Part shown: positions 1-28,398 of the stretch, piece by piece
How positions within the stretch are numbered: position 1 is the stretch's first letter
How the letters are laid out: the number at the start of each line of letters is the position of its first letter
Assembly: GCA_041661405.1 (NCBI GenBank)
Contig: JBAZUL010000002.1
Coordinates: 3,715 to 67,714, forward strand
Direction of reading: 5' to 3'
DNA length: 64,000 nucleotides
From: Patescibacteria group bacterium
GTDB lineage: Bacteria > Patescibacteriota > Patescibacteriia > Patescibacteriales > JBAZCA01
Program-made: the position numbers and the translations under genes
Notes under the pieces: generated by a model
What the model saw: only the letters and a program-made list of their open reading frames with translations
Database searches by the model: none
Told to the model about the DNA's origin: nothing

Positions 1-317
1 GTCCGACTCATCCAAGGCTTTATTATTTGGATGAAAAGAAGAATATAATTCTGGCCAATGGTGATGAAAAAATGTCCACCAACATCCAGGCCTGGCGCTC
101 GGCCTATATTTTGAACGGCTGTTTTGTTTACATTATTAAGACTAAATCTTTCTTAAAAGAAAAAAACGTGATTATGAAAAATACCAAAGCGGTTATTTGC
201 GATAAATGGCGTTCGGTGGATTTGGATGAACCTGAAGACTGGGCTTTGGCTGAAATTTTGTTTAAAAATAAAAATAATCTGGCTAATCGGATAAAACAAA
301 TTTATGGAAAAAAATAA
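1..317 (+). CDS. Acylneuraminate/CMP-ulosonic acid cytidylyltransferase family protein, C-terminal fragment (gene starts upstream of window)
   Basis: The open frame runs from the window edge and its ATG-started part begins at 27. C-terminal motif ...ICDKWRSVDLDEPEDWALAEILFKN resembles the end of CMP-sugar cytidylyltransferases. It sits in a nonulosonic-acid gene cluster. Confidence 0.45.
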   Translation, partial: PTHPRLYYLDEKKNIILANGDEKMSTNIQAWRSAYILNGCFVYIIKTKSFLKEKNVIMKNTKAVICDKWRSVDLDEPEDWALAEILFKNKNNLANRIKQIYGKK

Positions 318-1320
318 GCTAAAATTTTTAATTATCGGCTTAGGTTCAATGGGGAAGCGAAGAATCCGCAACCTGATTTGTAACGGTCAAAAACTGATTA
401 TCGGATATGATATTCAGGCGAAACGGATGAAAGAGGCTAAAGAAAAATATGGCATTGAAACGGCCAACATAAAAAAAGCGGCCAAAAATGATTATGACGT
501 CATGATTATTTCCACCCCGCCCGATCAGCACGGCGATTACATCCGGATGGCTTTGCGGGATAAGAAGCATTTTTTCGTAGAGCATCCGACCAGCCTTGAC
601 GGCTATCCGGAGGTTTTGGCGGATAAAAATATAAAAATCGCCAAAGCGCCGTCTTGCACCCTGCTTTATTATTCGCCGATTAAGATGATGAAAAAAATAT
701 TAGAACAGGGAGAAATCGGCCGAGTGCTCGCTTTTCAGTATCATATGGGACAGTATCTGCCTGACTGGCATCCATGGGAAGATTATCGCCAGGTTTATTT
801 TTCAAAAAAAGAAACCGGGGCTTGCCGGGAAATGCTCCCTTTTGAATTAATCTGGCTGAACTGGCTTTTAGGCTCAAAAGTAAAAAATATCTCCGGCGCT
901 ATCAGTAAAGTATCGGACTTAAAAATGAAAGCCGACGACATTATTAACGCCAACGTTCAATATGGTAATGGCATCATGGGAAATATTATTATAGACGTTA
1001 TCGCGAGAAAGCCTTGCCGGACTTTACGGGTTCTCGGCTCCGAGGGCGTTATGGATTGGGAAAGGTTTGATTTTCAAATAAAAGTCTTTAACGCCAAAAC
1101 AAAAAAGACGAGAATTATTGACATCCCCAAAGGTCATCCGGAAACCGGTTATGTTAACGAGGAAGAAATGTATAATGAAGAAATTGGTGATTTTTTAAAA
1201 GCCATTGAGGGAAAAAAGAAATTCCCGCACAATTTTGAGGACAGCCGGCAGGTATTAAATACTTTATACGCCCTGGAAGAATTCTCGGCTAAAGGCAAGG
1301 TAATGATAGTAAAAAAATAA
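304..1320 (+). CDS. Gfo/Idh/MocA family NAD(P)-dependent oxidoreductase
   Basis: N-terminal Rossmann motif LIIGLGSMGKRRIRNL, length 338 aa, and typical position in nonulosonic-acid clusters. Confidence 0.65.
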   Translation: MEKNKLKFLIIGLGSMGKRRIRNLICNGQKLIIGYDIQAKRMKEAKEKYGIETANIKKAAKNDYDVMIISTPPDQHGDYIRMALRDKKHFFVEHPTSLDGYPEVLADKNIKIAKAPSCTLLYYSPIKMMKKILEQGEIGRVLAFQYHMGQYLPDWHPWEDYRQVYFSKKETGACREMLPFELIWLNWLLGSKVKNISGAISKVSDLKMKADDIINANVQYGNGIMGNIIIDVIARKPCRTLRVLGSEGVMDWERFDFQIKVFNAKTKKTRIIDIPKGHPETGYVNEEEMYNEEIGDFLKAIEGKKKFPHNFEDSRQVLNTLYALEEFSAKGKVMIVKK

Positions 1321-1480
1321 ATGTGTGGTTATAAAATTGGTAATAAGCGGAAAAATATGGCAATGAAAATAAAAATCGGAAGCAAGAACGTAGGATCGGG
1401 AAGTCCGGTTTTTAAATTCGGATCCGGCGATTTTACTAACCTACCGTTGTCGTCGGCTAATTAAATAAAAATAGATATTT

Positions 1481-2626
1481 ATGGTAGATGCCCAGAAAAA
1501 AATTTTAATAATCACCGGAACACGGGCCGAGTATGGGCTTTTAAAATCGACGATTGATGAGGTGCGCAAGAGTAAAAAATTAAGCCTGCAACTTTTAGTC
1601 ACCGGAATGCATACTTTAAGGAAATACGGCCATAGCTTAGATATGATTAAAGAGGATCGGGTTTTGATTAACGAAGTGGTGAAGATTAAAGAAAATGACA
1701 GCATGCCGGAGGCTTTAGCTAAGGAGATTATCGGGATTAGTAAATTTTGCGTTAAAAATCGTCCGGAGGTGATTGTTGTTCTGGGGGATCGGGATGAAGC
1801 TTTTGCCGGCGCGATTGTCGGCAGCCATCTCGGCATTCCAGTCGGGCATATTCACGGCGGCGATTATACCGGCACGATCGTTGACGGTTTGATTAGACAC
1901 GCGATTACTAAACTGTCGCATCTTCATTTTACCGCCTGCCGGAAAAGCTTTGAACGCGTAAAACTTTTGCAGGAAAACCCCAAAAATATTTTTTTAGTCG
2001 GCGCCCCGGGCTTGGATAATCTGAACAGCCGAAAATTACTAAGCCGCCAAGAGCTGGCCAAAAAATTGAATTTGCCAATCAACCGCCCCTGGCTGTTATT
2101 CTTGATGCATCCGACGCCTTTTTCGCCGATTTCGCTTAAAACGCAGATAAGCAATCCATTAAAAGCTATTAGCCGGCTGGAGTCATTTGAAAAAATTGTT
2201 ATTTATCCTAACGCGGATACGGGCAGCGATATTTTTATAAAGTCAATAAAAACTTATAAAAAAGACAATTCTTTCCGCATATTTTTCAACTTGCCGAGAT
2301 TGGATTATCTTTCATTATTAGACAAAGTTGAATTTATGGCAGGCAATTCCAGTTCCGGAGTTTTAGAATCAACCTATTTTAGACTGCCTGCAATTAATAT
2401 CGGCGACCGGCAAAAATACCGCGAGCGGGGAAAGAATGTAATTGACTGCGGTTATGGTTATAGCTCAATAATTAGAGCTATCAAGCTGGCCGCTACTCCG
2501 GCTTTCAGGAAGAAAGCGAAGAACGCGACTAATCCTTACGGCAATGGAGGCGCGGCAAAAAAAATAGTCAAAATTTTGGAAAACATAAAAGAAAAAAATT
2601 TAATTTTAGAAAAAACTTTTACCTAG
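1481..2626 (+). CDS. neuC: UDP-N-acetylglucosamine 2-epimerase (hydrolysing), NeuC/LegG/PseG-like
   Basis: ILIITGTRAEYGLL N-terminus. GDRDEAFAGAIV...GIPVGHIHGGD motif characteristic of hydrolysing UDP-sugar 2-epimerases. Confidence 0.7.
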   Translation: MVDAQKKILIITGTRAEYGLLKSTIDEVRKSKKLSLQLLVTGMHTLRKYGHSLDMIKEDRVLINEVVKIKENDSMPEALAKEIIGISKFCVKNRPEVIVVLGDRDEAFAGAIVGSHLGIPVGHIHGGDYTGTIVDGLIRHAITKLSHLHFTACRKSFERVKLLQENPKNIFLVGAPGLDNLNSRKLLSRQELAKKLNLPINRPWLLFLMHPTPFSPISLKTQISNPLKAISRLESFEKIVIYPNADTGSDIFIKSIKTYKKDNSFRIFFNLPRLDYLSLLDKVEFMAGNSSSGVLESTYFRLPAINIGDRQKYRERGKNVIDCGYGYSSIIRAIKLAATPAFRKKAKNATNPYGNGGAAKKIVKILENIKEKNLILEKTFT

Positions 2627-2630
2627 AATT

Positions 2631-3578
2631 ATGACCGCTCCGCGCTTAAACAACAATAAAATAATCTTCGTTACTTTTAACCGACTCGGTTATCTGTGCC
2701 TGGAAACGATCGCCCGATCCGGAGTTTTTAATATAAAACAAGCGTATACCCTGAAACCTGAGCTGACGGGAAAAATTTCCGATTATAAAGACATAGAACT
2801 TTTGTGCAAAAAGTTTGAATTTCCGGTTAAAAGGATTAAAAATATCAATAATGAAACAGATGAAATAAAAAAAATCAACCCGGACATTATTTTTATTATC
2901 GGCTGGTCCCAGATCATAAATGAAGAATTAATAAAAATTCCCAAGATTGGCTGCGTAGGTTTCCACCCGGCGCTGTTGCCAAAGAACAGAGGCCGGGCGG
3001 CCATACCCTGGCATTTTATAAATGAGGAGAAATATGGCGGCGCTACTTTATTTTTCATTGATGAGGGTTGTGACAGTGGCGATATTATCGCCCAGAAAAG
3101 ATTTGTTTTGACCGATAAAGATAACGCTAAAAGTTATTATGAAAAAATTGAAGAAGTTGCAGTTAAAATGCTTAAAAGTTGCGCGAGAGACCTGGTTCGG
3201 GATAAAATAAAAAGACGCCGGCAAGATCATCGCCGGGCAACCTGCCTTTTTTTAAGGAACGCGGATGACAGTTTTTTGGATTTTCAAAAATTGAATACCA
3301 GGCAAATTTTTAATCAAGTCCGGGCAGTCGCCGGCATTTATCCGGCCGCTTTCGCGGATTATGAAAAAAACAGAGTGGAGTCGCTGGCCGCGATGATAGT
3401 GCCGAAAAAGTTTTATATTTATTCGGCCGCACCCGGACAAATAATCAAGGTTTTGCCCGATGGCATCTGGGTGAAGACTATTGACGGTATTATTGAGTTA
3501 AGCAAGCTGTCGTCTGACGGCGCGGCAATTAATGATTGTCCCCGATTTTTTAAGTCCGGACATTATTTAAACAGATAA
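2631..3578 (+). CDS. Formyltransferase (Fmt/ArnA-N-like) probably acting on an amino-sugar nucleotide
   Basis: Formyl_trans_N core: IIGWSQII...GCVGFHPALLPKNRGRAAIPWHFINEEKYGGATLFFIDEGCDSGDII. Found in a sugar cluster. Confidence 0.65.
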   Translation: MTAPRLNNNKIIFVTFNRLGYLCLETIARSGVFNIKQAYTLKPELTGKISDYKDIELLCKKFEFPVKRIKNINNETDEIKKINPDIIFIIGWSQIINEELIKIPKIGCVGFHPALLPKNRGRAAIPWHFINEEKYGGATLFFIDEGCDSGDIIAQKRFVLTDKDNAKSYYEKIEEVAVKMLKSCARDLVRDKIKRRRQDHRRATCLFLRNADDSFLDFQKLNTRQIFNQVRAVAGIYPAAFADYEKNRVESLAAMIVPKKFYIYSAAPGQIIKVLPDGIWVKTIDGIIELSKLSSDGAAINDCPRFFKSGHYLNR

Positions 3579-3583
3579 AAAAT

Positions 3584-4243
3584 ATGCAAAAAATGCTTAT
3601 TTTTGCCCCCCATCCCGATGACGAAGTCTTAGGATGCGGCGGGACAATAAAAAAATATTCAAAGGCGGGTAATGAGGTGTTTCTCTGCGTAGTTACTAAA
3701 GCCTATTCGCCGGAGTGGTCAAAATCGTTTATCAAAAACCGGACCAAAGAAGTAGCCGCCGCAAACAAAATTTTGGGGATTAAAAAAACTTTCTTTTTGG
3801 ATTTTCCCACGGTTAAACTTGATACTGTCCCGCAAAAAGAATTAAATGAAGCTATTTTATCAGTTATAAGAGAAGTTAGGCCGCGAATTGTTTATTTGCC
3901 TCATTGCGGCGATATAAATAAAGACCATCGCCTGGTTTTTGAGGCCGGCCTGGTAGCTCTAAGACCGAGCAACAATACTTCGGTTAAAAAAATATTATCT
4001 TATGAATCATTGTCGGAAACGGCCGAAGGAAGAAGTATTAAAGAGTTTTCTCCGACCAGTTATGAAAAAATTGATAATGAATTAGCTAAAAAAATTCAGG
4101 CCATGAAAGCCTATAAAAGCGAAATTCGTAAATTTCCTCATCCCCGTTCGCTCGAGATGATGAAAGTACTGGCTAAAAAAAGGGGATCGGAAGCGGGTTA
4201 TAGATTAGCGGAAGCGTTTGTCTTAATCAGGGAAATATTATGA
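3584..4243 (+). CDS. PIG-L/LmbE family N-acetylglucosaminyl deacetylase
   Basis: MLIFAPHPDDEVLGCGGTI N-terminal signature of the PIG-L deacetylase family. Confidence 0.7.
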   Translation: MQKMLIFAPHPDDEVLGCGGTIKKYSKAGNEVFLCVVTKAYSPEWSKSFIKNRTKEVAAANKILGIKKTFFLDFPTVKLDTVPQKELNEAILSVIREVRPRIVYLPHCGDINKDHRLVFEAGLVALRPSNNTSVKKILSYESLSETAEGRSIKEFSPTSYEKIDNELAKKIQAMKAYKSEIRKFPHPRSLEMMKVLAKKRGSEAGYRLAEAFVLIREIL

Positions 4244-4296
4244 GTCAAAGGCCGGGGATCCGGCAGCGCTAACTTAGAAATAGAATAAATAAATTT

Positions 4297-4698
4297 ATGC
4301 AACCAAGATTCAACAATTGGCGCGCGCCGAAAATAACAGAAGGGAAGCTGACCAAATGGAATTGGCTAGTAAAACATAAAAATAATTTAAAGCTCGGTTC
4401 GCGATGCGATATCGGCGCGTTTACCTATATTAACGCGCGAAACGGAGTGGTTATTGAAGATGAGGTTCAAGTCGGATCGCATTGTTCTATTTATTCGGTT
4501 TCCACTATTGATAATAAAGAGGGAAGGGTAGCGTTGAAAAAAAACTGCCGCGTCGGATCGCACAGTGTAATTATGCCCGGCGTTACTATTGGAGAAAATT
4601 CTATCGTTGGAGCGTTTAGCTTTGTAAATCGCGACGTCCCGGCTAATGTGGTCGTTTGCGGCGTGCCGGTAAAAGTTATAAAAAAAATTAAGCCCTAA
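4297..4698 (+). CDS. Hexapeptide-repeat (left-handed beta-helix) sugar N/O-acetyltransferase
   Basis: Repeated [LIV]GxxxxI hexapeptides (VQVGSHCSIY, CRVGSHSVIMPGVTIGENSIVGAFSFV). Confidence 0.6.
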   Translation: MQPRFNNWRAPKITEGKLTKWNWLVKHKNNLKLGSRCDIGAFTYINARNGVVIEDEVQVGSHCSIYSVSTIDNKEGRVALKKNCRVGSHSVIMPGVTIGENSIVGAFSFVNRDVPANVVVCGVPVKVIKKIKP

Positions 4699-4702
4699 TC
4701 TT

Positions 4703-5827
4703 ATGAAAAAATATCCGGTAGCCAAGCCTTACATTACTGATGAAGACCGGGAAAGCGTCCTCGGGGTTTTAAAAACCGACTATTTGAGTCTCGGACCCAA
4801 ACTAGGGGAGTTTGAAAGGAAATTTGCGAGGAAACTGGGAGTGAAATTCGCCTGCGCCGTATCCAGCGGCACGGCCGGACTGCATCTAGCCTTAATCGCT
4901 TCAGGTATTGGTGAGGGCGATGAGGTAATTACGACTCCGTTTACTTTCGTGGCGTCAGCCAATACAATTGTTTCGGTTGGCGCTAAGCCGGTATTTGCCG
5001 ATATTGATCCCATAACTTATAACATTAATCCAGGACAACTGGAAAAAAAGATTACGAAACTCACCAAAGCTATTATGGTAGTGCATATCTTCGGCCAGCC
5101 ATGTGATATGGATCCTATAATGGCCATTGCGAAAAAAAACAGGCTATTAGTTATTGAAGACGCTTGTGAATCGCTTAACGCGGCTTATCGCGGAAAAAAA
5201 GCCGGAACTTTCGGTCAGGCCGGAGTATTCGCGTTCTACCCCAACAAGCAGATGACGACCGGCGAAGGTGGCATGATTATTACTAATAACAAAAAGATTT
5301 ACGACGCTTGCGCCAGCTTAAGGAATCAGGGACGGGATGAGAACGACCGCTGGCTGGAGCATAAATATTTTGGATACAATTACCGGTTGGATGAAATGAG
5401 CGCGGCTTTAGGGATAAGTCAGTTAAAAAAGCTTGATTTTATGATTAGTGAGCGCCGGAAAATCGCCGGATGGTATTCCGGGCTCCTAAAACCTTACGCC
5501 GATATTGTCCAGCATCCCGGAATTGCCGCCGATAATGACCACACCTGGTTCGTCTATGTTATTAAGATTAAAGATAAAAAAATCAGCCGCGATCGGTTGA
5601 TTGTGAGTTTAGAGAGAAAAGGCATATGCACCCGGCCATATCTTCCTTCGGTTCATTTATTTTCATTTTATAAAAAACGGTTTAGCTGCCGGGAGGGAGA
5701 TTTTCCGGTAAGTGAGGAAGCAAGCGCCTCCACCCTGGCTTTGCCGCTTTTTGTCGGTTTGACTAAGCGTGATTGCCAATATATAGTGAATAAACTAATA
5801 AAGGAAATCAATAATTTAAAGAAATAA
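4703..5827 (+). CDS. DegT/DnrJ/EryC1/StrS family aminotransferase (PseC/LegC-like sugar aminotransferase)
   Basis: N-terminal ITDEDRESVLGVLKTDYLSLGPKLGEFERKFA and PLP-fold motifs. 374 aa. Confidence 0.8.
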   Translation: MKKYPVAKPYITDEDRESVLGVLKTDYLSLGPKLGEFERKFARKLGVKFACAVSSGTAGLHLALIASGIGEGDEVITTPFTFVASANTIVSVGAKPVFADIDPITYNINPGQLEKKITKLTKAIMVVHIFGQPCDMDPIMAIAKKNRLLVIEDACESLNAAYRGKKAGTFGQAGVFAFYPNKQMTTGEGGMIITNNKKIYDACASLRNQGRDENDRWLEHKYFGYNYRLDEMSAALGISQLKKLDFMISERRKIAGWYSGLLKPYADIVQHPGIAADNDHTWFVYVIKIKDKKISRDRLIVSLERKGICTRPYLPSVHLFSFYKKRFSCREGDFPVSEEASASTLALPLFVGLTKRDCQYIVNKLIKEINNLKK

Positions 5828-5834
5828 AAAATAT

Positions 5835-6890
5835 ATGGCTAATGAATTTAAAAACAAAAGGATTTTAGTAACCGGCGGCACAGGTTCCATCGGCTCGGTA
5901 ATCGTTAAAAAATTATTGCAGTTTAATCCCAAACAAATCCGAATTTTAAGCCGGGATGAAACCAAACAGTTTAATTTAATTAATGAATTAAACCACAATT
6001 CTAAATTAAGGATGCTGATTGGCGACATAAGAAATAAGGATCGGGTGAATAAAGCCATGGAGAACGTTGATATTGTTTTTCACGCCGCCGCCATGAAACA
6101 CGTTTTATCCTGCGAAAACGACCCGTTTGAGGCCGTTGAAACTAATGTCCGCGGCATGCAAAATATAATAGATTGCGCCATGATTAATGATGTGGAAAAA
6201 GTAATCGGGATTTCAACCGATAAAGCGACTGATCCGACTTCTGTTATGGGTTGCACTAAACTTTTGGCGGAAAAAATTATGCTTTCGCATTACAGTGGGC
6301 CGCACCGGACTAAATTTTGTTTCGTCCGCTTTGGTAATGTTTTAAACTCGCGAGGTTCAGTCATCCCTTTATTTTATAAGCAAATTAAAGCCGGTGGCCC
6401 GGTAACCGTAACCGACAAGGACGTTTGTCGTTTTTTCATGTCAATAGATGATGCTGTTAACTTAGTTTTTAAAGCTTCAAATATAATGCGTGACCGGGAA
6501 ATTTTCGTTTTAAAACAGATGGCTATTTTGAAAATTATTGATTTAGCCCGGGCGATGATTGAACTTTACGCGCCTCAGTCAGGCTTAAACGCCAAAGATA
6601 TAAAGATAAAAATTACCGGTCTTAAAAGCGGAGAAAGGTTACATGAAAAATTATTGAGTAAGGATGAATCGGGCTATGCTCTGGAGAACGAAGAGATGTT
6701 TATAGTTCTGCCAGTTTTAAATTTTGATGTTAATCAGGCGGCTAAGCGCAAAAAATATTTAAACGCGGAGAAGAGCCGGATTGGCGACTTTAGCACTGAG
6801 AACAGGAAAGTTTTGCCGGTTGCCGAAATAAAAAAACTTCTTCTTAAGGATAGCGGTAACCTTTCACATGAGATTAATAATTTATCCTGA
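5835..6890 (+). CDS. UDP-N-acetylglucosamine 4,6-dehydratase (PseB/FlaA1/CapD family)
   Basis: KRILVTGGTGSIGSVIVKKLLQFNPKQIRILSRDETKQ signature of PseB/LegB-type short dehydratases. 351 aa. Confidence 0.75.
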   Translation: MANEFKNKRILVTGGTGSIGSVIVKKLLQFNPKQIRILSRDETKQFNLINELNHNSKLRMLIGDIRNKDRVNKAMENVDIVFHAAAMKHVLSCENDPFEAVETNVRGMQNIIDCAMINDVEKVIGISTDKATDPTSVMGCTKLLAEKIMLSHYSGPHRTKFCFVRFGNVLNSRGSVIPLFYKQIKAGGPVTVTDKDVCRFFMSIDDAVNLVFKASNIMRDREIFVLKQMAILKIIDLARAMIELYAPQSGLNAKDIKIKITGLKSGERLHEKLLSKDESGYALENEEMFIVLPVLNFDVNQAAKRKKYLNAEKSRIGDFSTENRKVLPVAEIKKLLLKDSGNLSHEINNLS

Positions 6891-8355
6891 CGCGGGTATG
6901 AATGTTTTTTTAATAAAATGGGATTATAATAACGAGGATAATCTGGCGATCGCAAAAGGGTTAGAAAACCAAGGCCATAAAATTAAGTATTGGGTTGGTA
7001 CCAGCCCCGAAGATGTTTCCTCGCCAAGCCGCAGAAATTTCACAAAGACGGTATTTCATAATATTTTTGACGCTATTGCCGGTCGACCGGCGGCTGAATT
7101 TAAGGATATCAGTTTTCCGCCGCCGGGCGAAAAAACTATAAAGGATTTTTTTGAGACTGAATCAATTCTCGCCACAATCAAGCAGTTTGAAAAATTGACG
7201 CCTAGCGTATTGGAAAAGAAAAGCGTTTATCACGGTTTTTTGGAGTACTGGTTTGGCATCATCAATAAACTAAAACCGGAAGCTGTTATTTTTTCAGTTC
7301 AGCCTCACGCTGGTTTTGATTTTGTCCTTTATTCCATCGCGAAGCATCTAAAAATCAAAACCGTTATTTTTGAATACACGGGCGTGTCTGACCGCCACTT
7401 CGTTATTAACGATTATAGCGTTGGTTGCGATAAATTAAGGAAGGAGATTGAAGACAACCGGGGCAAGGCCATAGGAATCAAAGATTTAAGTTCCGATATA
7501 AGAGAGTTTTATTTAAGGCAGGCGGATAGAGCTAGGCAGGCAATCAGCAAAGAAGTGGGAAATATCAAGAAAAGTTTCTCGGGGTTTAATTTAGTCTTAA
7601 TTAAATTAAGAATGCTGAAGCGCGCGATAGCCGATTTCTCATTTTTAAAAAAAAGTTATTTTTATTTTAAAAAAAAATTAGGAAAAAATTTTCGAAAGGA
7701 ATATATTGAAGTCCAAATCCAACCAGACTGGAATAAAAAATTTATTTATCTAGCCTTGCACTACCAGCCCGAAGCCGCCACCTCTCCTTTGGGGGGAGTT
7801 TTTGTTGATCAGCTTTTGATGATTAAAAATTTAGCTTACGCTCTCCCGGATAACTGGGTAATCTATGTTAAAGAACACCCGGTGCAGTGGCTGATTAGCG
7901 GGCTTAATTATACCTCTTTCCGTTATCCGGGCTACTATAAGTCAATCTCTGAAATAAAAAATGTGAAGATTGTGCCAATTGATACTTCAGCTGAAGAGTT
8001 GATAGAAAAATCGGAAGCGGTTGCCACTATTACCGGCTCGGCCGGACGGGAAGCCTTGCTCCGCAAGAAGCCGGTTATTATTTTTGGTTATCCGAACTAT
8101 CGCTACTGTCCGGGAGCGTTTAAGGTTAATGATGTTTTATCATGCCAGGCAGCGATCACTAAAATAAAATCCGGGTTTATATTGGAAGAGCGGGATATAC
8201 TGAATTATCTTTATAGTTTGGACAGAATAAGTATACATACTTACTTTGAAATTTCAGCAAAGAAATTATCAAAATTAACCCCGGCGGAACACGTTGAGAT
8301 TATGACGGGAGCAATTGTAAGGGAGCTGGAAGCTAAGCCATTTGGCGCGATATAA
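6868..8355 (+). CDS. Capsule polysaccharide biosynthesis protein family (KpsC/KpsS-like) putative ulosonic-acid glycosyltransferase
   Basis: Motif LHYQPEAATSPLGGVFVDQLLMIKNLAYALPDNWVIYVKEHP resembles the HxQPE core of the Capsule_synth family. The start may be the internal Met at 6898. Confidence 0.4.
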   Translation: MRLIIYPDAGMNVFLIKWDYNNEDNLAIAKGLENQGHKIKYWVGTSPEDVSSPSRRNFTKTVFHNIFDAIAGRPAAEFKDISFPPPGEKTIKDFFETESILATIKQFEKLTPSVLEKKSVYHGFLEYWFGIINKLKPEAVIFSVQPHAGFDFVLYSIAKHLKIKTVIFEYTGVSDRHFVINDYSVGCDKLRKEIEDNRGKAIGIKDLSSDIREFYLRQADRARQAISKEVGNIKKSFSGFNLVLIKLRMLKRAIADFSFLKKSYFYFKKKLGKNFRKEYIEVQIQPDWNKKFIYLALHYQPEAATSPLGGVFVDQLLMIKNLAYALPDNWVIYVKEHPVQWLISGLNYTSFRYPGYYKSISEIKNVKIVPIDTSAEELIEKSEAVATITGSAGREALLRKKPVIIFGYPNYRYCPGAFKVNDVLSCQAAITKIKSGFILEERDILNYLYSLDRISIHTYFEISAKKLSKLTPAEHVEIMTGAIVRELEAKPFGAI

Positions 8356-8394
8356 AACGTCTTGGTCAGCCGGTTGTTTAGTTAGAAGAAAACC

Positions 8395-9804
8395 CTACCG
8401 CCCCTCCCTGGAAACTACAGTCGCGATAGTCTTTAGAATAATGGACAGATCCAGGTAGAGGGATCTGTTTTTTATGTAAAAGAGATCGTATTGCAATTTT
8501 TTTAAGCTGTCTTCGTATGACGGGGAATGGTACTCTCCGGAAATCTGATCCCAGCCGGTAATTCCCGGCTTGACGAGCATCCGTTCCCGGTAAAAGGGGA
8601 TCTGTTTTTCCAGCTCTAAAATCAGTTCCGGACGTTCAGGCCGCGGTCCGACAAAACTCATGTCTCCGCGGAGGATGTTTAAGGCCTGCGGGATTTCATC
8701 AAGCCGGGTTTTTCTAAGGAACGAACCAAAACCGGTAATGCGGCGGTCGCCGGGCAGGGTAGGCGAGCGGTCGTTGCCAATTTCCCGCATAGAGCGGAAT
8801 TTAAGCATCCCGAACTCCGCGCCGTTTTTTCCCGAGCGGGGCATGCGGATAAAAACCGGCCCCTGACTTTCCATTTTTATAGCCAGGGCGATGAGCGGCC
8901 AGAAGGCCAAGGTGAGAACGAGAATGGCGAACGCGAGGATTATGTCGTAAACCCGTTTAAAGAGGTCAAAGCCGTTTTTTTTCCCTTCGTTCATATTTTC
9001 AAGAAACCACATCTCGCTTATGGCTTCAACAGGCACTTTGCCGGTAAGCTGTTCGTAAAAGTTCGCCAGACTCTGGTATTTGATGTTTAAGGGCAGACAG
9101 GAAAAAAGCGCTGTCCGAAGTTCGCCGGATTCGCGGGGATTTTCGGAAAAAATTAGCGCGGAAATTTTATTTTTTTCCGCCATATTTTTTAGCTCGCTGA
9201 TTCTAATGATTGGCGGGAAAACGAGCTTAAAACCTTTTTCATCAGCGGTTTCCGCCATGTTTTCGCCGGCTTGGTTTGCGTCGGCGCTATTTTTTCCTTC
9301 AACAATAAACTTAACGTCATATCCGAGATGGGGTTTTTTTATGAGATAAGCGATGAGTTCGCTGGCTTGGCGGTTTAAACCGGCAAAAGCCAGGCTGGTT
9401 TTTGGCAGGCGCGATTTTAAGAGCCAGTTACAGGCGCGCCGCCAGAGGACGAAAATTATGCCGTAGATAAAGATGAAAATGATCAGGTTGGTTTTCGGGG
9501 CAATGCCCATGCCGGGCGAGGCGTAAAAAAAGATTACCGAAAGAAGCGCGGCGACGGAGAGGCTTTGGGTTATTTTCCGGATGAACTCCGACCCGTTAAC
9601 TGCGGCTTTTAAATCGTAGAGGCCGGAAATGTAAAAAATAATTATCCAGCCGAAAAAAATGGCTGTAAAAGGAAAAAAATGATCCTGCCAGGTAGCGGCC
9701 GACGGCAGGCTTAAATACCGGAGGCTGAGGGCGAGGTAAAGCGCTAAATACAAAAAAACAAAGTCGCCGAAGAGTATGGTGAATTTTTTCAAACGGTTAT
9801 TCAT
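8395..9804 (-). CDS. Undecaprenyl-phosphate sugar phosphotransferase (WbaP/bacterial sugar transferase family)
   Basis: Four or five N-terminal TM helices. C-terminal FDLFKRVYDIILAFAILVLTL...FRSMR...PGITGWDQISG is typical of priming glycosylphosphotransferases. Confidence 0.75.
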   Translation of the reverse strand: MNNRLKKFTILFGDFVFLYLALYLALSLRYLSLPSAATWQDHFFPFTAIFFGWIIIFYISGLYDLKAAVNGSEFIRKITQSLSVAALLSVIFFYASPGMGIAPKTNLIIFIFIYGIIFVLWRRACNWLLKSRLPKTSLAFAGLNRQASELIAYLIKKPHLGYDVKFIVEGKNSADANQAGENMAETADEKGFKLVFPPIIRISELKNMAEKNKISALIFSENPRESGELRTALFSCLPLNIKYQSLANFYEQLTGKVPVEAISEMWFLENMNEGKKNGFDLFKRVYDIILAFAILVLTLAFWPLIALAIKMESQGPVFIRMPRSGKNGAEFGMLKFRSMREIGNDRSPTLPGDRRITGFGSFLRKTRLDEIPQALNILRGDMSFVGPRPERPELILELEKQIPFYRERMLVKPGITGWDQISGEYHSPSYEDSLKKLQYDLFYIKNRSLYLDLSIILKTIATVVSREGR

Positions 9805-9845: not shown

Positions 9846-10382
9846 TTAAAAGCTTAGAGCCTTCTTGGTCGCCGCGGTTTGGCTTTTTTTAGTGTAAGCC
9901 AAAGCCAGCTCATAGCTTCCGGCTAATGTCGCTGTATAAAAGAGATCGCCCATGAGACTATTTTTGAAAAACGGGATGGCCAATATGTAGCATTGATAAA
10001 GTCCGCTAAGACTATGTTCATACCAGCTGCCAAACGCCCAGACCGAAAAGTTAGTAAGAAGGAAAAACAAGATACTTCCCAAAACCGTTCCTCCGAGGAT
10101 GGTAGCGGCGTTTTTTTTCGTTTTTACAGCCATGCCCATAAGGGTCATGATAATAAAACCTGAGTAAACCGAAAGCATGATTGGCCAAGCGTAAAAACCG
10201 ATAAAAATATCGCTTAAAAACATGGCCATGAGCGGCAAAATAAACGCCCAGCGCCGCGGCAGATAAATACCCGAAAAAATCGCTACCGCGCCCAAGGCGG
10301 TGAAGTTCGCCGGATGCGGCAGAAAGCGGGTGGAAACGCCGAGAAGAATTAAGATGATAGCGGGCAAATAATATTTTTTCAT
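9846..10382 (-). CDS. Small polytopic membrane protein, possibly an ECF-transporter S-component-like substrate capture protein
   Basis: 178 aa with 5-6 predicted TM helices and no soluble domain. Own extended -10 promoter (TGaTATAAT) at about 10418-10426 on the minus strand. Assignment is by architecture only. Confidence 0.3.
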   Translation of the reverse strand: MKKYYLPAIILILLGVSTRFLPHPANFTALGAVAIFSGIYLPRRWAFILPLMAMFLSDIFIGFYAWPIMLSVYSGFIIMTLMGMAVKTKKNAATILGGTVLGSILFFLLTNFSVWAFGSWYEHSLSGLYQCYILAIPFFKNSLMGDLFYTATLAGSYELALAYTKKSQTAATKKALSF

Positions 10383-10466
10383 ACGGTTTTAGCTAAGGCC
10401 GGAACTTAAGTTTGCCGGCGATTGATTATTTTTATTATATCAGGCTGTTTTTGTTTTGTCATTCAA

Positions 10467-12635
10467 TTAGCGTCTTTTCGCGCCGCTATAGGCTATGGCG
10501 CGGACTATGTTCCAGTCTTCCAAGTTTTCCGGCGTCCGGCCATAAACCGCGATAAAGCTTTTCAGGGCCGCTGATTCGTCTTTCAGTTTTCTCGCGGGCA
10601 GAAGCCCGTAAGCCGCGATCGTAATAAAAGCGTTTTCATGGGGATCGTCCATATCGGCTTCATGCCGGTAAATTTTTAGAAATTTTTTTTTCGCGGCGGC
10701 CTCCCGGTCTTCGTTTCTCCGACCCGGCCAGCGTCCGCTCGCGATTTTTATTACATCCTCCCAATCAGCCTCGCTCTCCGGCGCGCGGCCAAAAGCCAGA
10801 CTGTAGGCGGAAAGCCCCGGTCGCAAAGCCTGATCCCGGAATTTTTTATCCAAAGCCGTTTCATCCTCGCCGGGATTACTGATTTTTTCTCCTAAAATCA
10901 TTTTTTCCAAATCTTCATCAGCCTCTTCTACTTGCGGCTCTTCATCTTCATTGCCTTCTTTATCATCGTCTTTATCGCTCTGCTCGCTTTCAGCGTTGAT
11001 ATTTTCAGAGTTTGTCCCGCTGTTTTCGTTTTCAGGATTCATGCCCGCCGGCAATGGAAAATCCATTAAAATATCAGTCCAGCTTTTTTTCAGACCGGCC
11101 GGCAGGGCGTAAGCCGAGGCCCAGACCCGGGTATTTTTGTCCGTAGCCGGCGAATCAAGGCCGCCGTCCGAATCCTGCAGGCTAGTGAGAAATTCAAGCG
11201 GGGTTTTCCCGTTTTTTTTCCAATCGTTTTCGTTTTCTCCCAAAGCGTAAATCGCCTGGAGCGCCCAGCTCGTGGAAAAACTGTTGCCAAATCCGGCGTC
11301 TTGCCCCTGCTTTTCTTTGAGATAAAGTTTGGCTCGGGTTATGGCGTTCTCCGCGCCTTCTCTGGCTCTAACCGATAAAAGCGCCTCAATCGCGGCGGCG
11401 GTCAAATCAACGCTCCCCCAGCCGTTATCCTGCCTCTGAGCCGAGAGGAGCTGGCTCAGGGCGCCAGTAAATATTGCATCTTCCGCAGTGTAACCGGCTT
11501 TTCTTAAAATCAAAATCGCAAAGATATCATCATTAAAGTTTTCCGCGTCCCCGGATTGACCGTTGGCGTATTGCTCAGTGATTTTACTTATATAGTTGGT
11601 TTTGGTTCCGTTGTATGGGTTAACGCGCAGACTCATCAAAGCCATGGCTCGGCGTTCGTAATCAGTTAACAAGTTGCCCGGGTGAGGATCGGTAAGCAAA
11701 TATTTTTTTATTTTTTCCGCATTACCGCCCTCAGCCGCCAGAGCGATAGCTGTCCAGTCGGTAATCATTATGTTCGGCATGGAGCCGTTTTCTTTCTGGT
11801 TAGCCAATAAGAAATTTGCCAGTTTTATACTGTCAATATTGGAAGGAGCGGGCGGAATAACCGTTCCTCCGCCATAACTGCCGCCGCCTCCGGAAGATCC
11901 GTGGTTTTGTTCTTCCTCTTCTTCCTCCTGTTCCGGTTCTTCTTCAACAACCAAAGGCAGGGGAGTTATAGTCAGGCTCCGGCTGTTTATGCAGCCGGCC
12001 CTTTCACCGTAAATTATATAAGGAGACGAAGTGCTGATAAAAAGTTCATAATTGCCGGTTGGATTATTGTATGCCGCGCCGTTTATATTTAAAGCGCTTT
12101 CGGCGGCCGGATTCCAGACCGGCATCCAGTTTTCGTCCAGCCCAAATTCAAAGAGGCTGATGGTTGAAGTGGCATTGACTTTTGGGGCGCTTTCCGATAT
12201 TTCCAGTTTTAAAGGGTTTACGCCGTAAGACAAAAGCAAGTCTTCTTCTTCGGTTAAAATATGGCTGTTTAAGGCAGTTTGTCCGTATTCCAGGTCAGAA
12301 AACCACTGCCAATAGATTCCGTTGCCGCCGCTATTATTCGCGTAGCCGCTGAGAGAGTCAAGAAAAGCCGATTCACCCCAATAACTCCAGTCGCTTTCCA
12401 GCCCTGACTGCATAATCGCGCACATGGCGTTTAAGGTGCTGGTCGCGCTATCGGCGGTCTCAGGGCAGGCCAAGACTTCAAGCGTATTATCGTAAACAAT
12501 TTCTTCTCCGGCCGCTACTTTGAGATGAATGCTGATTTTCTCTTCTTCCGCTTTTCCGGGGAGCGGGAAAAAAATCGCCAGAACGGCCAAAATCATCAAT
12601 CCTTTAAAAATTTGATTCTTCATATTTCCAGGCAA
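10467..12635 (-). CDS. Secreted protein with prenyltransferase/terpenoid-cyclase-like alpha/alpha-toroid repeats and an acidic Glu/Gly-rich linker
   Basis: Signal peptide. Repeated about 50-aa units with conserved aromatic residues (IMITDWTAIALAAEG, DDIFAILILRKAGY, SFSTSWALQAIYALG, TRVWASAYALPA). Two C-terminal about 30-aa repeats (..FGRAPESEADWEDVIKIASG / ..YGRTPENLEDWNIVRAIAYSGA). Confidence 0.55.
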   Translation of the reverse strand: MPGNMKNQIFKGLMILAVLAIFFPLPGKAEEEKISIHLKVAAGEEIVYDNTLEVLACPETADSATSTLNAMCAIMQSGLESDWSYWGESAFLDSLSGYANNSGGNGIYWQWFSDLEYGQTALNSHILTEEEDLLLSYGVNPLKLEISESAPKVNATSTISLFEFGLDENWMPVWNPAAESALNINGAAYNNPTGNYELFISTSSPYIIYGERAGCINSRSLTITPLPLVVEEEPEQEEEEEEQNHGSSGGGGSYGGGTVIPPAPSNIDSIKLANFLLANQKENGSMPNIMITDWTAIALAAEGGNAEKIKKYLLTDPHPGNLLTDYERRAMALMSLRVNPYNGTKTNYISKITEQYANGQSGDAENFNDDIFAILILRKAGYTAEDAIFTGALSQLLSAQRQDNGWGSVDLTAAAIEALLSVRAREGAENAITRAKLYLKEKQGQDAGFGNSFSTSWALQAIYALGENENDWKKNGKTPLEFLTSLQDSDGGLDSPATDKNTRVWASAYALPAGLKKSWTDILMDFPLPAGMNPENENSGTNSENINAESEQSDKDDDKEGNEDEEPQVEEADEDLEKMILGEKISNPGEDETALDKKFRDQALRPGLSAYSLAFGRAPESEADWEDVIKIASGRWPGRRNEDREAAAKKKFLKIYRHEADMDDPHENAFITIAAYGLLPARKLKDESAALKSFIAVYGRTPENLEDWNIVRAIAYSGAKRR

Positions 12636-13302
12636 TGACGTCGCCGGCTTTAGGGAAGTAGTTTGAGATTCCCGCTTTAGCCGGAGCGTTATTAATATAG
12701 TAAATCCAAAACATGCCTTTTAGCGGGCTGTTTTTCAGCCCGTTTATTTCTTCAATAAAATAGCCCATGCCGCTATATTCTTTGGCCTTAAAATTTAAGG
12801 CGTTTTGAGTCCTTAGTTTGTCCATTAAAGCATAAACATTATTTCCTTCCGCTAACTCTGCTTCGTATTTTTTATCTTCAACATAAATATTAATACTGAT
12901 ATTTTTTTCTTCCGAAATTTTTTGCTCATCAGCGTCCGGCGCTTCGTCTGTTTTTTTAATTATTCCCTCAACAACATCACCCATAACCTGTCCAGCTTTT
13001 GTCCCGGTTTTGTCCGGAGTTTTAATTAGAACATCCTTGTCTGGCTGGCTGTTAGCGGCAAAATCAGGTTGCAAGGCGCTGGCCAGCGGATCGCTGTCTT
13101 TTATATCCAATGAATCAGCTTCTTTACTTTCTTCTATTGACGGCGCGTTTTTTGATATTTCGGCTGTTTCCTTATTCGGGCTATTAAGTTGATGATCACT
13201 TTGGAGCGGATTTTTTTCTATGGATTTAAAGAAAAAAAACAGGGATATAAAAAATACCGCGATAAAAAGTGTTTTCAGGCCGTTTTTAAAAGTTGGTTTC
13301 AT
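12604..13302 (-). CDS. DUF4430 domain-containing secreted or membrane-anchored protein
   Basis: N-terminal TM/signal segment and low-complexity linker. The C-terminal about 90 aa (INIYVEDKKYEAELAEGNNVYALMDK...GMFWIYYINNAPAKAGISNYFPKAGDVIAWKY) match the DUF4430 fold family. Overlaps the downstream gene by 32 bp, indicating an operon. Confidence 0.5.
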   Translation of the reverse strand: MKPTFKNGLKTLFIAVFFISLFFFFKSIEKNPLQSDHQLNSPNKETAEISKNAPSIEESKEADSLDIKDSDPLASALQPDFAANSQPDKDVLIKTPDKTGTKAGQVMGDVVEGIIKKTDEAPDADEQKISEEKNISINIYVEDKKYEAELAEGNNVYALMDKLRTQNALNFKAKEYSGMGYFIEEINGLKNSPLKGMFWIYYINNAPAKAGISNYFPKAGDVIAWKYEESNF

Positions 13303-13495
13303 AAAAAAACCCGCTTACGAGCGGGATAAAAAATCCTTAAAAAGGATTCCTGGCCTTTTAAAAAAGGCTGTCCCTGCTCGGGGAAAATAAATTATAATTA
13401 AATTCAGCATTCTGGCTTTTCCCGCCCCTACGGTGCGGGATTTACAGTTGCGGCACAGCGCCTGATTTTCACAGGACTTTCCTGAATTTAATCTA
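13303..13495 (-). promoter_or_regulatory. Candidate cobalamin (B12) riboswitch leader ending in an intrinsic terminator immediately upstream of the DUF4430 gene
   Basis: Read on the minus strand: GGAAAGUCCUGUGAAAAUCAGGCGCUGUGCCGCAACUGUAAAUCCCGCACCGUAGGGGCGGGAAAAGCCAGAAUGCUG. This resembles the cobalamin riboswitch core and B12-box. It is followed by CCCGCUCGUAAGCGGG plus U7, directly abutting the ATG. Confidence 0.5.
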
Positions 13496-13501
13496 TTGTT
13501 A

Positions 13502-13530
13502 ATAGTAGCGGGTATAAATTTTACTGTCAA
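13502..13530 (-). promoter_or_regulatory. Sigma-70-like promoter driving the riboswitch leader
   Basis: On the minus strand: -35 TTGACA (13530-13525), 17-nt spacer, -10 TACTAT (13507-13502). Confidence 0.5.
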
Positions 13531-13571
13531 CGGGTTGAAAATTGCGATTCTAAATGCTAGACTAAAGTCAC

Positions 13572-26184: not shown

Positions 26185-26874
26185 ATGCATTTAGAAAGAT
26201 TTGATAGTTTTTTACAAACAGTGCCCTTAAAAGACTATAGGAAAAAATATAGTAGCATTAAAATTGTTGAGATGGATTTGCCTAAAGATATACAAGCAAT
26301 TAATCTTTTATATAAAGTCTATTGGGAGGAAAATAAATTTATTTCCTTTGAAAAATTTTATAAGAGATATTCAGAAGAAAAAAAGGAGTTACTCGAGAAA
26401 TTTAGAAAGAAAACAACAATGTGTAAAAATTGTTTCTATCGCGGAATAGAAGCAAGGACTTACAGGACCTGGGCTGGGTTAATAACCCAAATCCATGGCG
26501 GATATGTTGCCGAGTCTGTCTTTGGCAAAGGAACCGTAAGCATGTCAAGAGAATTAGACTCTTTGGGAGCCGATATAAGAGTTAAGTATAGAGACGATAT
26601 TTTAAATTATCAGGTTAAAAAAACGAGTTTTAGCGGAGTAATGAGCAGGGTTCCGCTTCCAAGAAAAAAGAAGACAGAAGGGGAAAATATTGACATAAAG
26701 TATGAAGTGCCTGCTTGTTTATCTGACCCAAAAACAAAAAAGGGAGAATTTAGAATACCATATTTGAGATTTTTAGAAGACAAGCGAATAAAGGCATTTA
26801 GCAACGGTTTTGTAGTTTTTACTCCTTACATTTTTGTAAGCAAAAAGAAAGAAATAGACAAAAGTTTAAAATAA
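26185..26874 (+). CDS. Hypothetical protein, candidate PD-(D/E)xK-type nuclease partner of the methyltransferase
   Basis: Possible D...(E/Q)xK arrangement (LGADIRVKYRDDILNYQVKK). Convergent with, and overlapping by 9 bp, the LexA-MTase gene. Weak. Confidence 0.25.
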   Translation: MHLERFDSFLQTVPLKDYRKKYSSIKIVEMDLPKDIQAINLLYKVYWEENKFISFEKFYKRYSEEKKELLEKFRKKTTMCKNCFYRGIEARTYRTWAGLITQIHGGYVAESVFGKGTVSMSRELDSLGADIRVKYRDDILNYQVKKTSFSGVMSRVPLPRKKKTEGENIDIKYEVPACLSDPKTKKGEFRIPYLRFLEDKRIKAFSNGFVVFTPYIFVSKKKEIDKSLK

Positions 26875-28398
26875 TTTTGGAATATATTTTGTATTATTTA
26901 GTATATGGTTAGCGATTTTAATATATTCAGGATTTATCTCAAAACCAATAAAAGATTGTCCTAATTCTTTCGCGGCAATACATTCAGAACCAGAACCAAC
27001 AAATGGCACCAACACGATGCCATTTTTTTGTGGCATTGCGGATTGAATTAATTTTCGCGATAACTCCAGCGGTTTTTGGGTGGGATGCTTTATAATATTA
27101 TGATCCTGATGTTTTTTGAGTTCTTTTGGCGAATAAATATTATTACAATCTTTGCATAAAAAATATCTTTCAGACATTCCAGCTCCTCCGGCCAGAGCGG
27201 GAATTTTTAATACATCTCTAGGGAGCGCGCCGTTCTCATGAGCATTATAAACTGTTTCTTTTCCGCTACTGCTAAAACGACCGGCGGTAGCCGCTCTTAT
27301 TTTACCCGCGGCCCCATTTAAAAATCCTTCGGTGTATGGTTCTCTAACTTCATCTCTATTAAAAATTGGTTGTTGTTTCCAGGCGCAAATAATTGCCTCA
27401 TGGCTTCTTTGCCAAAAATTTAAAGAAGCGACATTTTTATTAGTATAATGCCAGATGAGCCATCTTTTCGGTAAAGAAATTTCTACTGATAGATAAGCCA
27501 AAATTTCGCTAAAGCCGTAAATAAATATTGTTCCGTTTGGCTTCATTACGCGAATACATTCATTTATCCATTCATTACACCAAGCGATATATTCTTTTAA
27601 TTCTCTTTTGTCGTGATTATTACCGAAATCTTTGCCTATGTTGTAGGGCGGATCAGCGACGACGACATCGCAACTTTCGTCAGGAAGTTTTTTTATTTCG
27701 TTTATAACATCGCCACAAATGATTTGATTTAATGGTAAATTTTTATATTGTATTGTTTGTTTTTTTTCTGTCTGTAATTCGGGCGTTACATTTTTAATGA
27801 CATCAATTACAATTCCTTGAATCATTAAATTTTCCGGTTTAACATATATCGGGCTTATTCTTAAATTCGCCGGCTGTAAACGAATCCTACCTTTTTCTTT
27901 ATAGATTTTTTTTAGCGTTGCTTCGCTATTATCAATTAACGCTACAATTTTTTGTCCGTTAACCGCCGTGGTTTGACTTTTAATTATTACGATGTCTCCA
28001 TCGTTAATGTTTTCTCCGATCATACTGCTACCGCTTACGCGCAAGGCAAAAAGATCGGCTGATTTTGGTAAGTTAATTTTAGGCACGGCGATTGTTTCTC
28101 TTTCTTCTATCGCTTCAATTGGTTGCCCAGCGGCTATTGTGCCTTTTAATGGAATTTGGATAAAGTCATCTATTGTTTTCTTAATTTCTATACCCCTTGA
28201 TGAGTTTTCATTTTTTATTAAATAATCTTTATTTATCAACGCTTCAACATGTTGATGCACCGTAGAAAGCGCGGAAAGTTTAAATCGTTTCTTTATTTCT
28301 TCGTAAGTAGGGGATATACCACTTTTTTTAATATATTCAGCAATGAAGTCTAAAATTTGTTTTTGCCTTTTAGTTAAAGTTTGCATAGTGTTTGACAT
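26866..28398 (-). CDS. Fusion protein: LexA-like S24 autopeptidase repressor (wHTH + Ala-Gly/Ser/Lys peptidase domain) fused to a beta-class N6-adenine/N4-cytosine DNA methyltransferase
   Basis: N-terminus TKRQKQILDFIAEYIKKSGISPTYEEIKKRF matches the LexA wHTH. Cleavage-site-like IAAGQP. RVSGSSMIGENINDGDIVII (Ser) and ATLKK (Lys) mark the S24 peptidase. Then motif IV VVADPPYNIG, followed by C-terminal HPTQKP and FVGSGSE (motif I). Motif IV before motif I indicates a beta-class amino-methyltransferase. Confidence 0.7.
   Translation of the reverse strand: MSNTMQTLTKRQKQILDFIAEYIKKSGISPTYEEIKKRFKLSALSTVHQHVEALINKDYLIKNENSSRGIEIKKTIDDFIQIPLKGTIAAGQPIEAIEERETIAVPKINLPKSADLFALRVSGSSMIGENINDGDIVIIKSQTTAVNGQKIVALIDNSEATLKKIYKEKGRIRLQPANLRISPIYVKPENLMIQGIVIDVIKNVTPELQTEKKQTIQYKNLPLNQIICGDVINEIKKLPDESCDVVVADPPYNIGKDFGNNHDKRELKEYIAWCNEWINECIRVMKPNGTIFIYGFSEILAYLSVEISLPKRWLIWHYTNKNVASLNFWQRSHEAIICAWKQQPIFNRDEVREPYTEGFLNGAAGKIRAATAGRFSSSGKETVYNAHENGALPRDVLKIPALAGGAGMSERYFLCKDCNNIYSPKELKKHQDHNIIKHPTQKPLELSRKLIQSAMPQKNGIVLVPFVGSGSECIAAKELGQSFIGFEINPEYIKIANHILNNTKYIPKLF

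Follow-up and report, generated by a model that had tools for sequence, protein, structure and literature searches.

We describe a three-gene operon on the minus strand of a 64-kb stretch of DNA, called the window throughout, from a bacterium of the Patescibacteria, also known as the candidate phyla radiation (CPR). The operon occupies positions 9846-13302 and is preceded by a leader at 13303-13530 (minus strand). Together, they are likely to form a vitamin B12 (cobalamin)-repressed module for extracellular corrinoid capture and import. A preliminary description, made from the sequence of the window, had suggested an uncharacterized B12-scavenging module at this site. Three kinds of evidence support that suggestion: a riboswitch in the leader, homology of encoded beta domains to those of transcobalamin-type B12 carriers, and comparative genomics. 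Both the match to the cobalamin riboswitch clan and the kinship to corrinoid binders, on which the suggestion depended, were found. The features of the operon and its leader are as follows.

13303-13571: spacer of 269 bp upstream of the operon, between a plus-strand holB-like gene (DNA_pol3_delta2) and the minus-strand operon.
13530..13502, minus strand: sigma-70-type promoter, TTGACA-17 nt-TACTAT, matching 10/12 consensus positions and driving the leader.
13397..13495, minus strand: compact, class-II-like cobalamin riboswitch aptamer, from Rfam RF01689, our covariance model R1 and covariation.
13372..13383, minus strand: 5' arm of the antiterminator, CCCCGAGCAGGG, with the conserved platform motif (C)CCGAGCAGG(A), from the minimum free energy (MFE) fold and relatives.
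13303..13325, minus strand: intrinsic terminator, hairpin CCCGCUCGUAAGCGGG plus U7, reaching the ATG, from a sequence scan.
12604..13302, minus strand: gene 1, 232 aa, DUF4430 protein (PF14478, E 3e-14).
10467..12635, minus strand: gene 2, 722 aa, toroid protein, from an AlphaFold2 (AF2) model, Foldseek, hhalign and Pfam.
10462..10434, minus strand: promoter-like site ATGACA-17-TATAAT, TG-extended, matching 11/12 consensus positions, in the 84-nt gap before gene 3.
9846..10382, minus strand: gene 3, 178 aa, DUF6580, a six-helix membrane protein (PF20221, E 7e-50).

The operon was compared with related loci from other genomes. One genome per species in GTDB was scanned with a DUF6580 alignment, which gave 80 loci, almost all from metagenome-assembled genomes of Patescibacteria; handles such as L001 denote individual loci of this set. 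Every sequence feature named in the preliminary description was present where it had been placed. The 269-bp spacer does contain the TTGACA-17-TACTAT promoter on the minus strand (13530..13502), which recurs with hardly a base changed in L001, the closest relative. The leader, given there as roughly 190 nt, measures about 193 nt, and its terminator abuts the ATG at 13302.

The leader RNA is, judged from sequence and covariation, a real cobalamin riboswitch under selection, for which cobalamin binding is predicted. All Rfam families were searched at their gathering thresholds against both strands of the whole window. Two matches were returned in all, one tRNA and, as the sole non-tRNA match, RF01689 (AdoCbl-II, clan CL00101). 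The latter covers 13399-13495 on the minus strand at 40.4 bits, compared to a gathering score of 36.5 (E 3.5e-6 for the 64-kb window). The sequence previously quoted as a cobalamin riboswitch core is the core of this match. RF00174 is not the best-matching family: RF01689 is best here and RF01482 in the relatives. On RF01482, the leaders of the relatives score 44-61 bits against a gathering score of 50, with L001 at 61.1 bits and several others just under the threshold. The aptamer consists of P1, a P5-type hairpin (loop UGAAAAU), the core CUGUGCCGCAACUGUAA, a variable hairpin and the B12 box AGCCAGAAUG. A core of the form CUGUGCCGCAAC.GUAA recurs 5' of the operon in most of the 80 loci.

An alignment of 41 homologous leaders (A3) was the basis of the covariation test and of model R1. 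The secondary structure was entered by hand, because a register shift had caused RNAalifold, run on the raw MAFFT alignment, to overlook the P5-type hairpin, and was verified by pair counts over the 41 leaders. It contains an 8-bp P1, a P5-type hairpin with an additional covarying pair that closes it, two core helices of 3 bp each and the variable hairpin. Standard pairs fill 91.2% of the cells, compared to 37-50% in controls whose 3' partners were slid along by 1-3 columns. Double-sided changes occur in 16 of the 21 pairs and in 150 cells, compared to 23-45 cells in the slid controls. The structure has a covariation score of 0.496, compared to 0.133 at most in the controls, and none of 500 shuffles reached the observed score. 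The segments GGAA, CUGUGCCGCAAC.GUAA and AG(U/C)C(C/A)G vary little or not at all across the 41 leaders. Model R1 scores the window aptamer at 78.5 bits (E 3e-20) and gives 48 matches with E <1e-7 in the window and the 80 loci, all of them on the operon strand and directly 5' of the first gene (DUF4430). The match is more than chance, since dozens of related loci share the aptamer and its helices, with compensatory changes.

The leader also contains an expression platform. The terminator hairpin CCCGCTCGTAAGCGGG lies at 13325-13310, followed by T7 at 13309-13303. When the full leader was folded, as had been suggested for checking the competition between terminator and antiterminator, that competition was apparent. 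The MFE fold keeps the aptamer and pairs CGAGCAGGG (within 13383-13372) with CCCGCUCG (13325-13318). CCCGCUCG is the 5' arm of the terminator, so antiterminator and terminator are mutually exclusive. Constrained folding of the platform gave -28.1 kcal/mol for the terminator state and -28.2 kcal/mol for the antiterminator state, a difference of 0.1 kcal/mol. These near-equal energies indicate a platform of bistable design. Nearly all related leaders have the same order of elements: the aptamer, in some leaders an additional hairpin, (C)CCGAGCAGG(A), a spacer hairpin, the terminator hairpin, a U-run and the start codon. In these leaders, the 5' arm and loop of the terminator are complementary to the CCGAGCAGG motif. 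The motif is conserved in sequence as well as in pairing, being found in about 40 of the 48 CPR leaders at 5-40 nt after P1, with a variant, UUCGAGCAAAG, in L003, L008, L010 and L013.

Single-sequence searches of the PDB with all three proteins returned nothing relevant, and profiles alone were informative. The gene 1 protein has an N-terminal hydrophobic anchor or signal sequence, a low-complexity linker of about 100 aa and, at the C-terminus, the DUF4430 domain (about aa 135-232, nt 12607-12900). A DUF4430 profile built from 18 loci was compared with all PDB sequences. It matched the C-terminal beta domains of three proteins, namely gastric intrinsic factor (8.6e-5, at residues 306-389), haptocorrin (3e-4) and transcobalamin (0.038); no other PDB sequence gave a significant match. 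DUF4430 is known as the C-terminal domain of transcobalamins (PMC4350170), and the profile matches to the beta domains of B12 carriers agree with this. By these profile comparisons, the DUF4430 domain of gene 1 and the N-terminal domain of gene 2 are homologues of the beta domain with which intrinsic factor, haptocorrin and transcobalamin bind B12. A word-index-limited search for homologues of the DUF4430 domain returned at least 10 proteins and is uninformative on taxonomic breadth.

Gene 2 overlaps gene 1 by 20-32 nt. The 722-aa open reading frame (ORF) of the preliminary description is present, but the start codon is probably the ATG at 12623, four codons further in, to judge from a 718-aa NCBI protein from Patescibacteria that is 100% identical and is named 'prenyltransferase/squalene oxidase repeat-containing protein'. 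From the N-terminus, the protein contains a signal peptide (aa 1-29), a DUF4430-like beta domain (about 33-137), an immunoglobulin (Ig)-like beta domain (about 140-225), a Gly/Glu linker, an alpha/alpha toroid (about 265-530, nt 11046-11843), an acidic linker and a helical C-terminal domain (about 594-717). In the AF2 model, the predicted local distance difference test score (pLDDT) is >90 for the all-beta region (aa 30-235) and the toroid (265-530), and the C-terminal helices are less confident. The N-terminal domain matches the DUF4430 profile with 93.9% probability (hhalign, E 1.6e-7), and the first beta domain carries two invariant cysteines, which fits an exported protein.

The best PDB fold matches of the toroid by Foldseek include haptocorrin, transcobalamin and intrinsic factor at about 17-18% identity. 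The comparison with corrinoid binders that the preliminary description had called for thus placed these three carriers among the top matches, and no cyclase motif was found in the toroid. Specifically, aa 265-530 contain no DxDD, DDxxD or CGEQ/thioester motif, and DxDD occurs only in the acidic linker and the C-terminal domain. The protein has one toroid of about 265 aa and does not have the two-barrel architecture of cyclases. Among 48 family members, Pfam finds SQHop_cyclase_C in 39, Cobalamin_bind in 33 (E up to 1e-3) and DUF4430 in 17. The idea that an alpha/alpha barrel and a small beta domain mimic transcobalamin in split form holds in part. The beta domains are homologous, and the toroid has transcobalamin-family fold matches. 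However, the arrangement is not simply split: gene 2 has a DUF4430-like domain of its own, placed before the toroid (beta, then alpha), and gene 1 adds a second, free-standing beta domain.

Other properties of the toroid proteins were observed. The C-terminal helical domain of gene 2 (aa 594-717, 10485-10856, minus strand) contains 2-3 internal repeats, such as GRAPESEADWEDVIKIASGRWP and GRTPENLEDWNIVRAIAYSG; it is not matched by Pfam but is conserved in L001, L005, L006, L008 and L013. It may be a module that anchors the protein to the cell envelope. In L003 (1867-3123), the N-terminal region with the DUF4430-like and Ig-like domains is tandemly duplicated. Toroid proteins range in length from about 550 to 1137 aa, which suggests a variable number of beta modules.

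Gene 3 lies 84 bp downstream of gene 2, and both this gap and a candidate promoter of its own (10462..10434) were present as previously described. No terminator was predicted between genes 2 and 3. DUF6580 is about 60% identical across the CPR and has an invariant RFLPHPANF motif, within which the invariant His23 is inferred to be a candidate cobalt ligand. The protein has the fold of an S-component of energy-coupling factor (ECF) transporters and of BtuM, with BtuM being structurally closest. BtuM of Thiobacillus denitrificans (PDB 6FFV, 8OVV) is a solitary S-component-like cobalamin transporter (PMC6072759), and ECF-CbrT of Lactobacillus delbrueckii (PDB 6FNP) is an ECF-type B12 transporter (PMC5997447). 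The DUF6580 family comprises 5,806 clusters at 50% identity (E up to 1e-3) and is labeled 'putative transport protein' at NCBI.

The order of the operon genes in the 80 loci was mapped by tblastn with the three window proteins. About 50 loci have DUF4430, the toroid gene and DUF6580 in this order, and in about 14 DUF4430 stands directly before DUF6580. Where enough upstream sequence was available, the riboswitch was found at all three-gene loci of other Patescibacteria (45/45) and at 2 of the 13 two-gene loci. Other contexts of DUF6580 link it to B12 in two independent ways. In three Bacteroidota loci (L066, L079, L080), a canonical RF00174 riboswitch scoring 80-114 bits lies immediately 5' of DUF6580, and a second riboswitch lies downstream. 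In L079 and L080, the downstream riboswitch is followed by a TonB-dependent receptor, the layout that an inner-membrane partner of BtuB would be expected to show. In five loci (L061, L065, L071, L072, L074), none of which has a riboswitch, a gene for the BtuR/CobO ATP:corrinoid adenosyltransferase (PF02572, E 1e-49 to 1e-58) is found immediately upstream on the same strand.

Several further features of these loci were noted. An ORF of about 125 aa lies between the toroid gene and DUF6580 in L067 (4068-4460), L027 (3983-4372), L028 (4092-4466) and L038 (3979-4341). It has a lipoprotein-type signal (LLLNTGC) and a C-terminus that looks DUF4430-like (W.IYIND...DEIKITYE) and is unseen by Pfam. At 22 loci, including L033 (3615-5120, minus strand), a convergent gene follows DUF6580 closely and encodes a conserved protein of about 470 aa, which has membrane segments at its N-terminus and is not matched by Pfam; no homologue was found in the window. 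tRNA genes often flank DUF4430 or DUF6580 immediately up- or downstream (L002, L007, L009, L010, L011, L040, L054, L064), especially at two-gene loci without a riboswitch. L077 has an S-adenosylmethionine (SAM)-I/IV riboswitch at 2875-2985 (41.9 bits against a gathering score of 41.1), about 1.5 kb upstream of a DUF6580 gene without a DUF4430 partner.

These data allow a mechanism to be proposed. When intracellular cobalamin is plentiful, the aptamer would be bound, the terminator would form and transcription would stop before the ATG. When cobalamin is scarce, the antiterminator (CGAGCAGGG with CCCGCUCG) would form and the operon would be transcribed. Repression by the ligand is proposed because of the layout of the platform and the behavior of nearly all known cobalamin riboswitches. 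Gene 3 may also have basal transcription from its own promoter-like site. Outside the cell, the exported toroid protein and the tethered DUF4430 protein would clamp the corrinoid between the toroid face and a beta domain, as transcobalamin does. Isolated alpha and beta fragments of intrinsic factor reportedly reassemble around cobalamin, a finding attributed to Fedosov and colleagues. The corrinoid would then be handed to DUF6580 and carried across the membrane. DUF6580 could do this by itself, through the toppling proposed for BtuM, or together with an ECF module whose genes lie elsewhere.

Several points weigh against this proposal. B12 binding and transport by the three protein families, and the coupling of ligand to terminator, are inferred. 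No riboswitch was detectable at 11 of the 13 two-gene loci. A Pfam scan of 40 of the 51 window ORFs of at least 150 aa found no cob/cbi gene, B12-dependent enzyme or ECF module. Sequence similarity of DUF6580 to BtuM or CbrT was undetectable in single-sequence and profile searches of the PDB, where no BtuM chain appeared even at E up to 10. An alignment of 21 DUF6580 sequences has no conserved cysteine, and the sole cysteine of the window protein, C131, is not conserved. The arrangement of the domains of gene 2 relative to each other is uncertain in the AF2 model (predicted template modeling score, pTM, 0.51). The window protein scores 21.3 bits on Cobalamin_bind (PF01122), under the Pfam cut-off of 25, and its toroid is closer by sequence profile to squalene-hopene cyclase (5e-10, in a match that spans only about 115 residues of QW-type repeats) than to haptocorrin (0.0095). 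Foldseek with the whole 722-aa model does not separate transcobalamin-type toroids from those of cyclases or of complement thioester-containing domains (TED), with similar scores for squalene-hopene cyclase, drimenyl diphosphate synthase and complement TED domains. Therefore, membership in the transcobalamin family is not claimed from the fold alone. In sequence as well as in fold, the toroid is about as near to the squalene-hopene-cyclase type as to the transcobalamin type. The toroid is treated here as putatively transcobalamin-like by function and by the company of its domains, family membership being unproven.

The link between aptamer and platform is a further point of this kind. In cobalamin riboswitches, an L5-L13 kissing loop is the usual link. 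An L5 kissing loop was not supported in 38 leaders, where the mean duplex energy of L5 with its own platform was -2.32 kcal/mol and with the platforms of other leaders -2.31 kcal/mol. In this test, which is crude, 278 of 500 permutations were at least as good. A by-eye search of the conserved aptamer segments found no complement of the CCGAGCAGG motif. Pairing of the L5 sequence GAAAAU with AUUUUC (13388-13383, just 5' of the antiterminator) had been considered as the coupling and was dropped for lack of a difference between own and cross pairs.

How DUF6580 would be energized leaves room for a variant of the proposal with the same function. In this variant, DUF6580 is a conventional ECF S-component like CbrT and needs EcfAA'T from elsewhere in the genome. 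We regard this as possible but somewhat unlikely. No ECF module was present in the scanned window ORFs, and none is a recurrent operon neighbor in the 80 loci. To our knowledge, the Bacteroidota, where DUF6580 adjoins TonB-dependent receptors, generally lack ECF modules, which also counts against the variant. In addition, BtuM shows that the fold can act alone (PMC6072759).

Another explanation is that the operon handles corrinoids without taking them up. The exported proteins could sequester or store corrinoids outside the cell against neighbors or a host, or present them for remodeling, with DUF6580 as an anchor or exporter. The long flexible linkers of both exported binders would suit such a role, DUF6580 might transport in either direction, and surface binders of Bacteroides such as BtuJ serve as extracellular reservoirs (PMC13616437). 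However, a terminator that forms at abundant ligand suits uptake better than storage, and DUF6580 has the fold of import S-components. In Bacteroidota, it adjoins TonB-dependent receptors under riboswitch control, where an inner-membrane importer would be placed. The btuR genes next to it at five other loci fit the salvage of an imported corrinoid. Handling without uptake is, for these reasons, improbable.

The profile ranking of the toroid raises the question of a different substrate. The 722-aa protein could be an exported toroid enzyme or binder of the terpene-cyclase, prenyltransferase or TED type that acts on an envelope lipid, a glycan or a host molecule, with B12 control being indirect. 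This would account for squalene-hopene cyclase as the top profile match, the frequency of SQHop_cyclase_C in the family and the NCBI name, and the toroid family has a near-invariant NDD motif that resembles part of the cyclase DxDD. It is harder to reconcile with the missing DxDD, DDxxD and thioester motifs, with a single toroid in place of a two-domain cyclase, and with a signal peptide and fusion to DUF4430, the family of the transcobalamin beta domain. The strict co-occurrence of the three-gene operon with the riboswitch also argues against it. We consider this explanation slightly less probable still than handling without uptake. Finally, a decayed or repurposed relative of the cobalamin riboswitch that senses no B12 or another ligand would fit the margin of only 4 bits above the gathering score in the window, the relatives just under the RF01482 threshold and the absence of the peripheral P6 extension, but it is very improbable given an invariant core, helices that covary across 41 divergent leaders and a constant position before genes of B12-linked families.

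The proposed capture and import module resembles several known systems in part. Transcobalamin, intrinsic factor and haptocorrin (PF01122 and PF14478) likewise are exported and combine an alpha/alpha toroid with a small beta domain of the DUF4430 family. The window system differs from them in being bacterial, in its permuted order (beta, Ig-like, toroid) instead of a single chain with alpha before beta, and in having a free-standing tethered beta domain as well as Ig-like and C-terminal helical domains; its B12 binding is predicted. DUF6580 shares the six-helix S-component-like fold with BtuM but lacks an equivalent of the essential cobalt ligand Cys80, having LPHPANF with an invariant His instead, and it occurs in Patescibacteria and Bacteroidota rather than Proteobacteria. 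With ECF-CbrT, it shares the S-component fold and a B12-related gene context, B12 import by DUF6580 being predicted.

In Bacteroides, BtuG, BtuH, BtuJ and BtuK form a surface corrinoid relay with BtuB (PMC6143338, PMC10404256, PMC13616437). The logic would be the same in that riboswitch-repressed operons encode high-affinity surface corrinoid binders that feed a membrane transporter. The folds are wholly different: beta-propeller, jellyroll (DUF4465) and BtuH folds there, DUF4430 and an alpha/alpha toroid here. The CPR host probably has no outer membrane and hence no TonB-dependent step. Finally, the leaders share the core, B12 box, P1 and P5-type hairpin with the compact cobalamin riboswitches RF01689 and RF01482. 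The CPR set differs from these in its extra conserved platform motif, CCGAGCAGG, which is the antiterminator, and in the unsupported L5 kissing loop.

Two other loci in the window were noted. An ORF at 26866-28398 (minus strand) fuses LexA DNA-binding and S24 peptidase domains to an N6/N4 DNA methyltransferase, and it adjoins a gene for a TaqI-like restriction endonuclease at 26185-26874 (plus strand). From its sequence, the region 26185-28398 would be a restriction-modification system in which a LexA-type module, for repression or autocleavage, is part of the methylase. Beside the operon, at 304-9804, lies a cluster for nucleotide-sugar and polysaccharide biosynthesis, whose position beside the operon is not shared by other loci. 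Its genes encode a GFO/IDH oxidoreductase, UDP-GlcNAc 2-epimerase, a formyltransferase, a PIG-L deacetylase, a DegT aminotransferase, Polysacc_synt_2, a capsule synthesis protein and a bacterial sugar transferase.

In the literature, no paper was found that mentions DUF6580 or links bacterial DUF4430 or toroid proteins to B12. Nothing was found on transcobalamin-like proteins together with a riboswitch, or on cobalamin riboswitches in Patescibacteria, and DUF4430 appeared only as the C-terminal domain of transcobalamins. Riboswitch logic with surface binders is already known from Bacteroides, and small S-component-type importers are known from BtuM and CbrT; the protein families here are different and uncharacterized. 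Database labels already hint at the function, as DUF4430 includes the transcobalamin C-terminal domain and DUF6580 is called a putative transport protein. We judge the chances to be about even that this is an unrecognized B12 acquisition system of Patescibacteria and, in part, other phyla. Built from three uncharacterized families, it would be the prokaryotic, modular equivalent of the carriers transcobalamin, intrinsic factor and haptocorrin of eukaryotes and might be their evolutionary source, with DUF4430 beta domains, both free and fused, closing over a toroid. The binders would supply DUF6580, a new and widespread family of cobalamin transporters that has the S-component fold but not the cysteine chemistry of BtuM. 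Control would lie with a compact cobalamin riboswitch subclass, whose sequence-conserved antiterminator motif CCGAGCAGG would point to coupling by a route that differs from the canonical kissing loop.

CPR bacteria are abundant, have reduced genomes and rely on other cells for cofactors. No paper was found that describes the route by which they are supplied with B12. The riboswitch-marked operon provides a concrete functional hypothesis for three families that are labeled DUF or 'prenyltransferase repeat'. The cobalamin riboswitches of the CPR lie at or just under the Rfam thresholds and are, therefore, easily overlooked in automated surveys of B12 regulons. If the hypothesis is true, DUF6580 would be a third S-component-type B12 importer beside BtuM and CbrT, and one that is also found next to BtuB-type receptors in Bacteroidota. 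The combination of a bacterial DUF4430 domain with a transcobalamin-like toroid would also bear on the origin of the animal B12 carriers.

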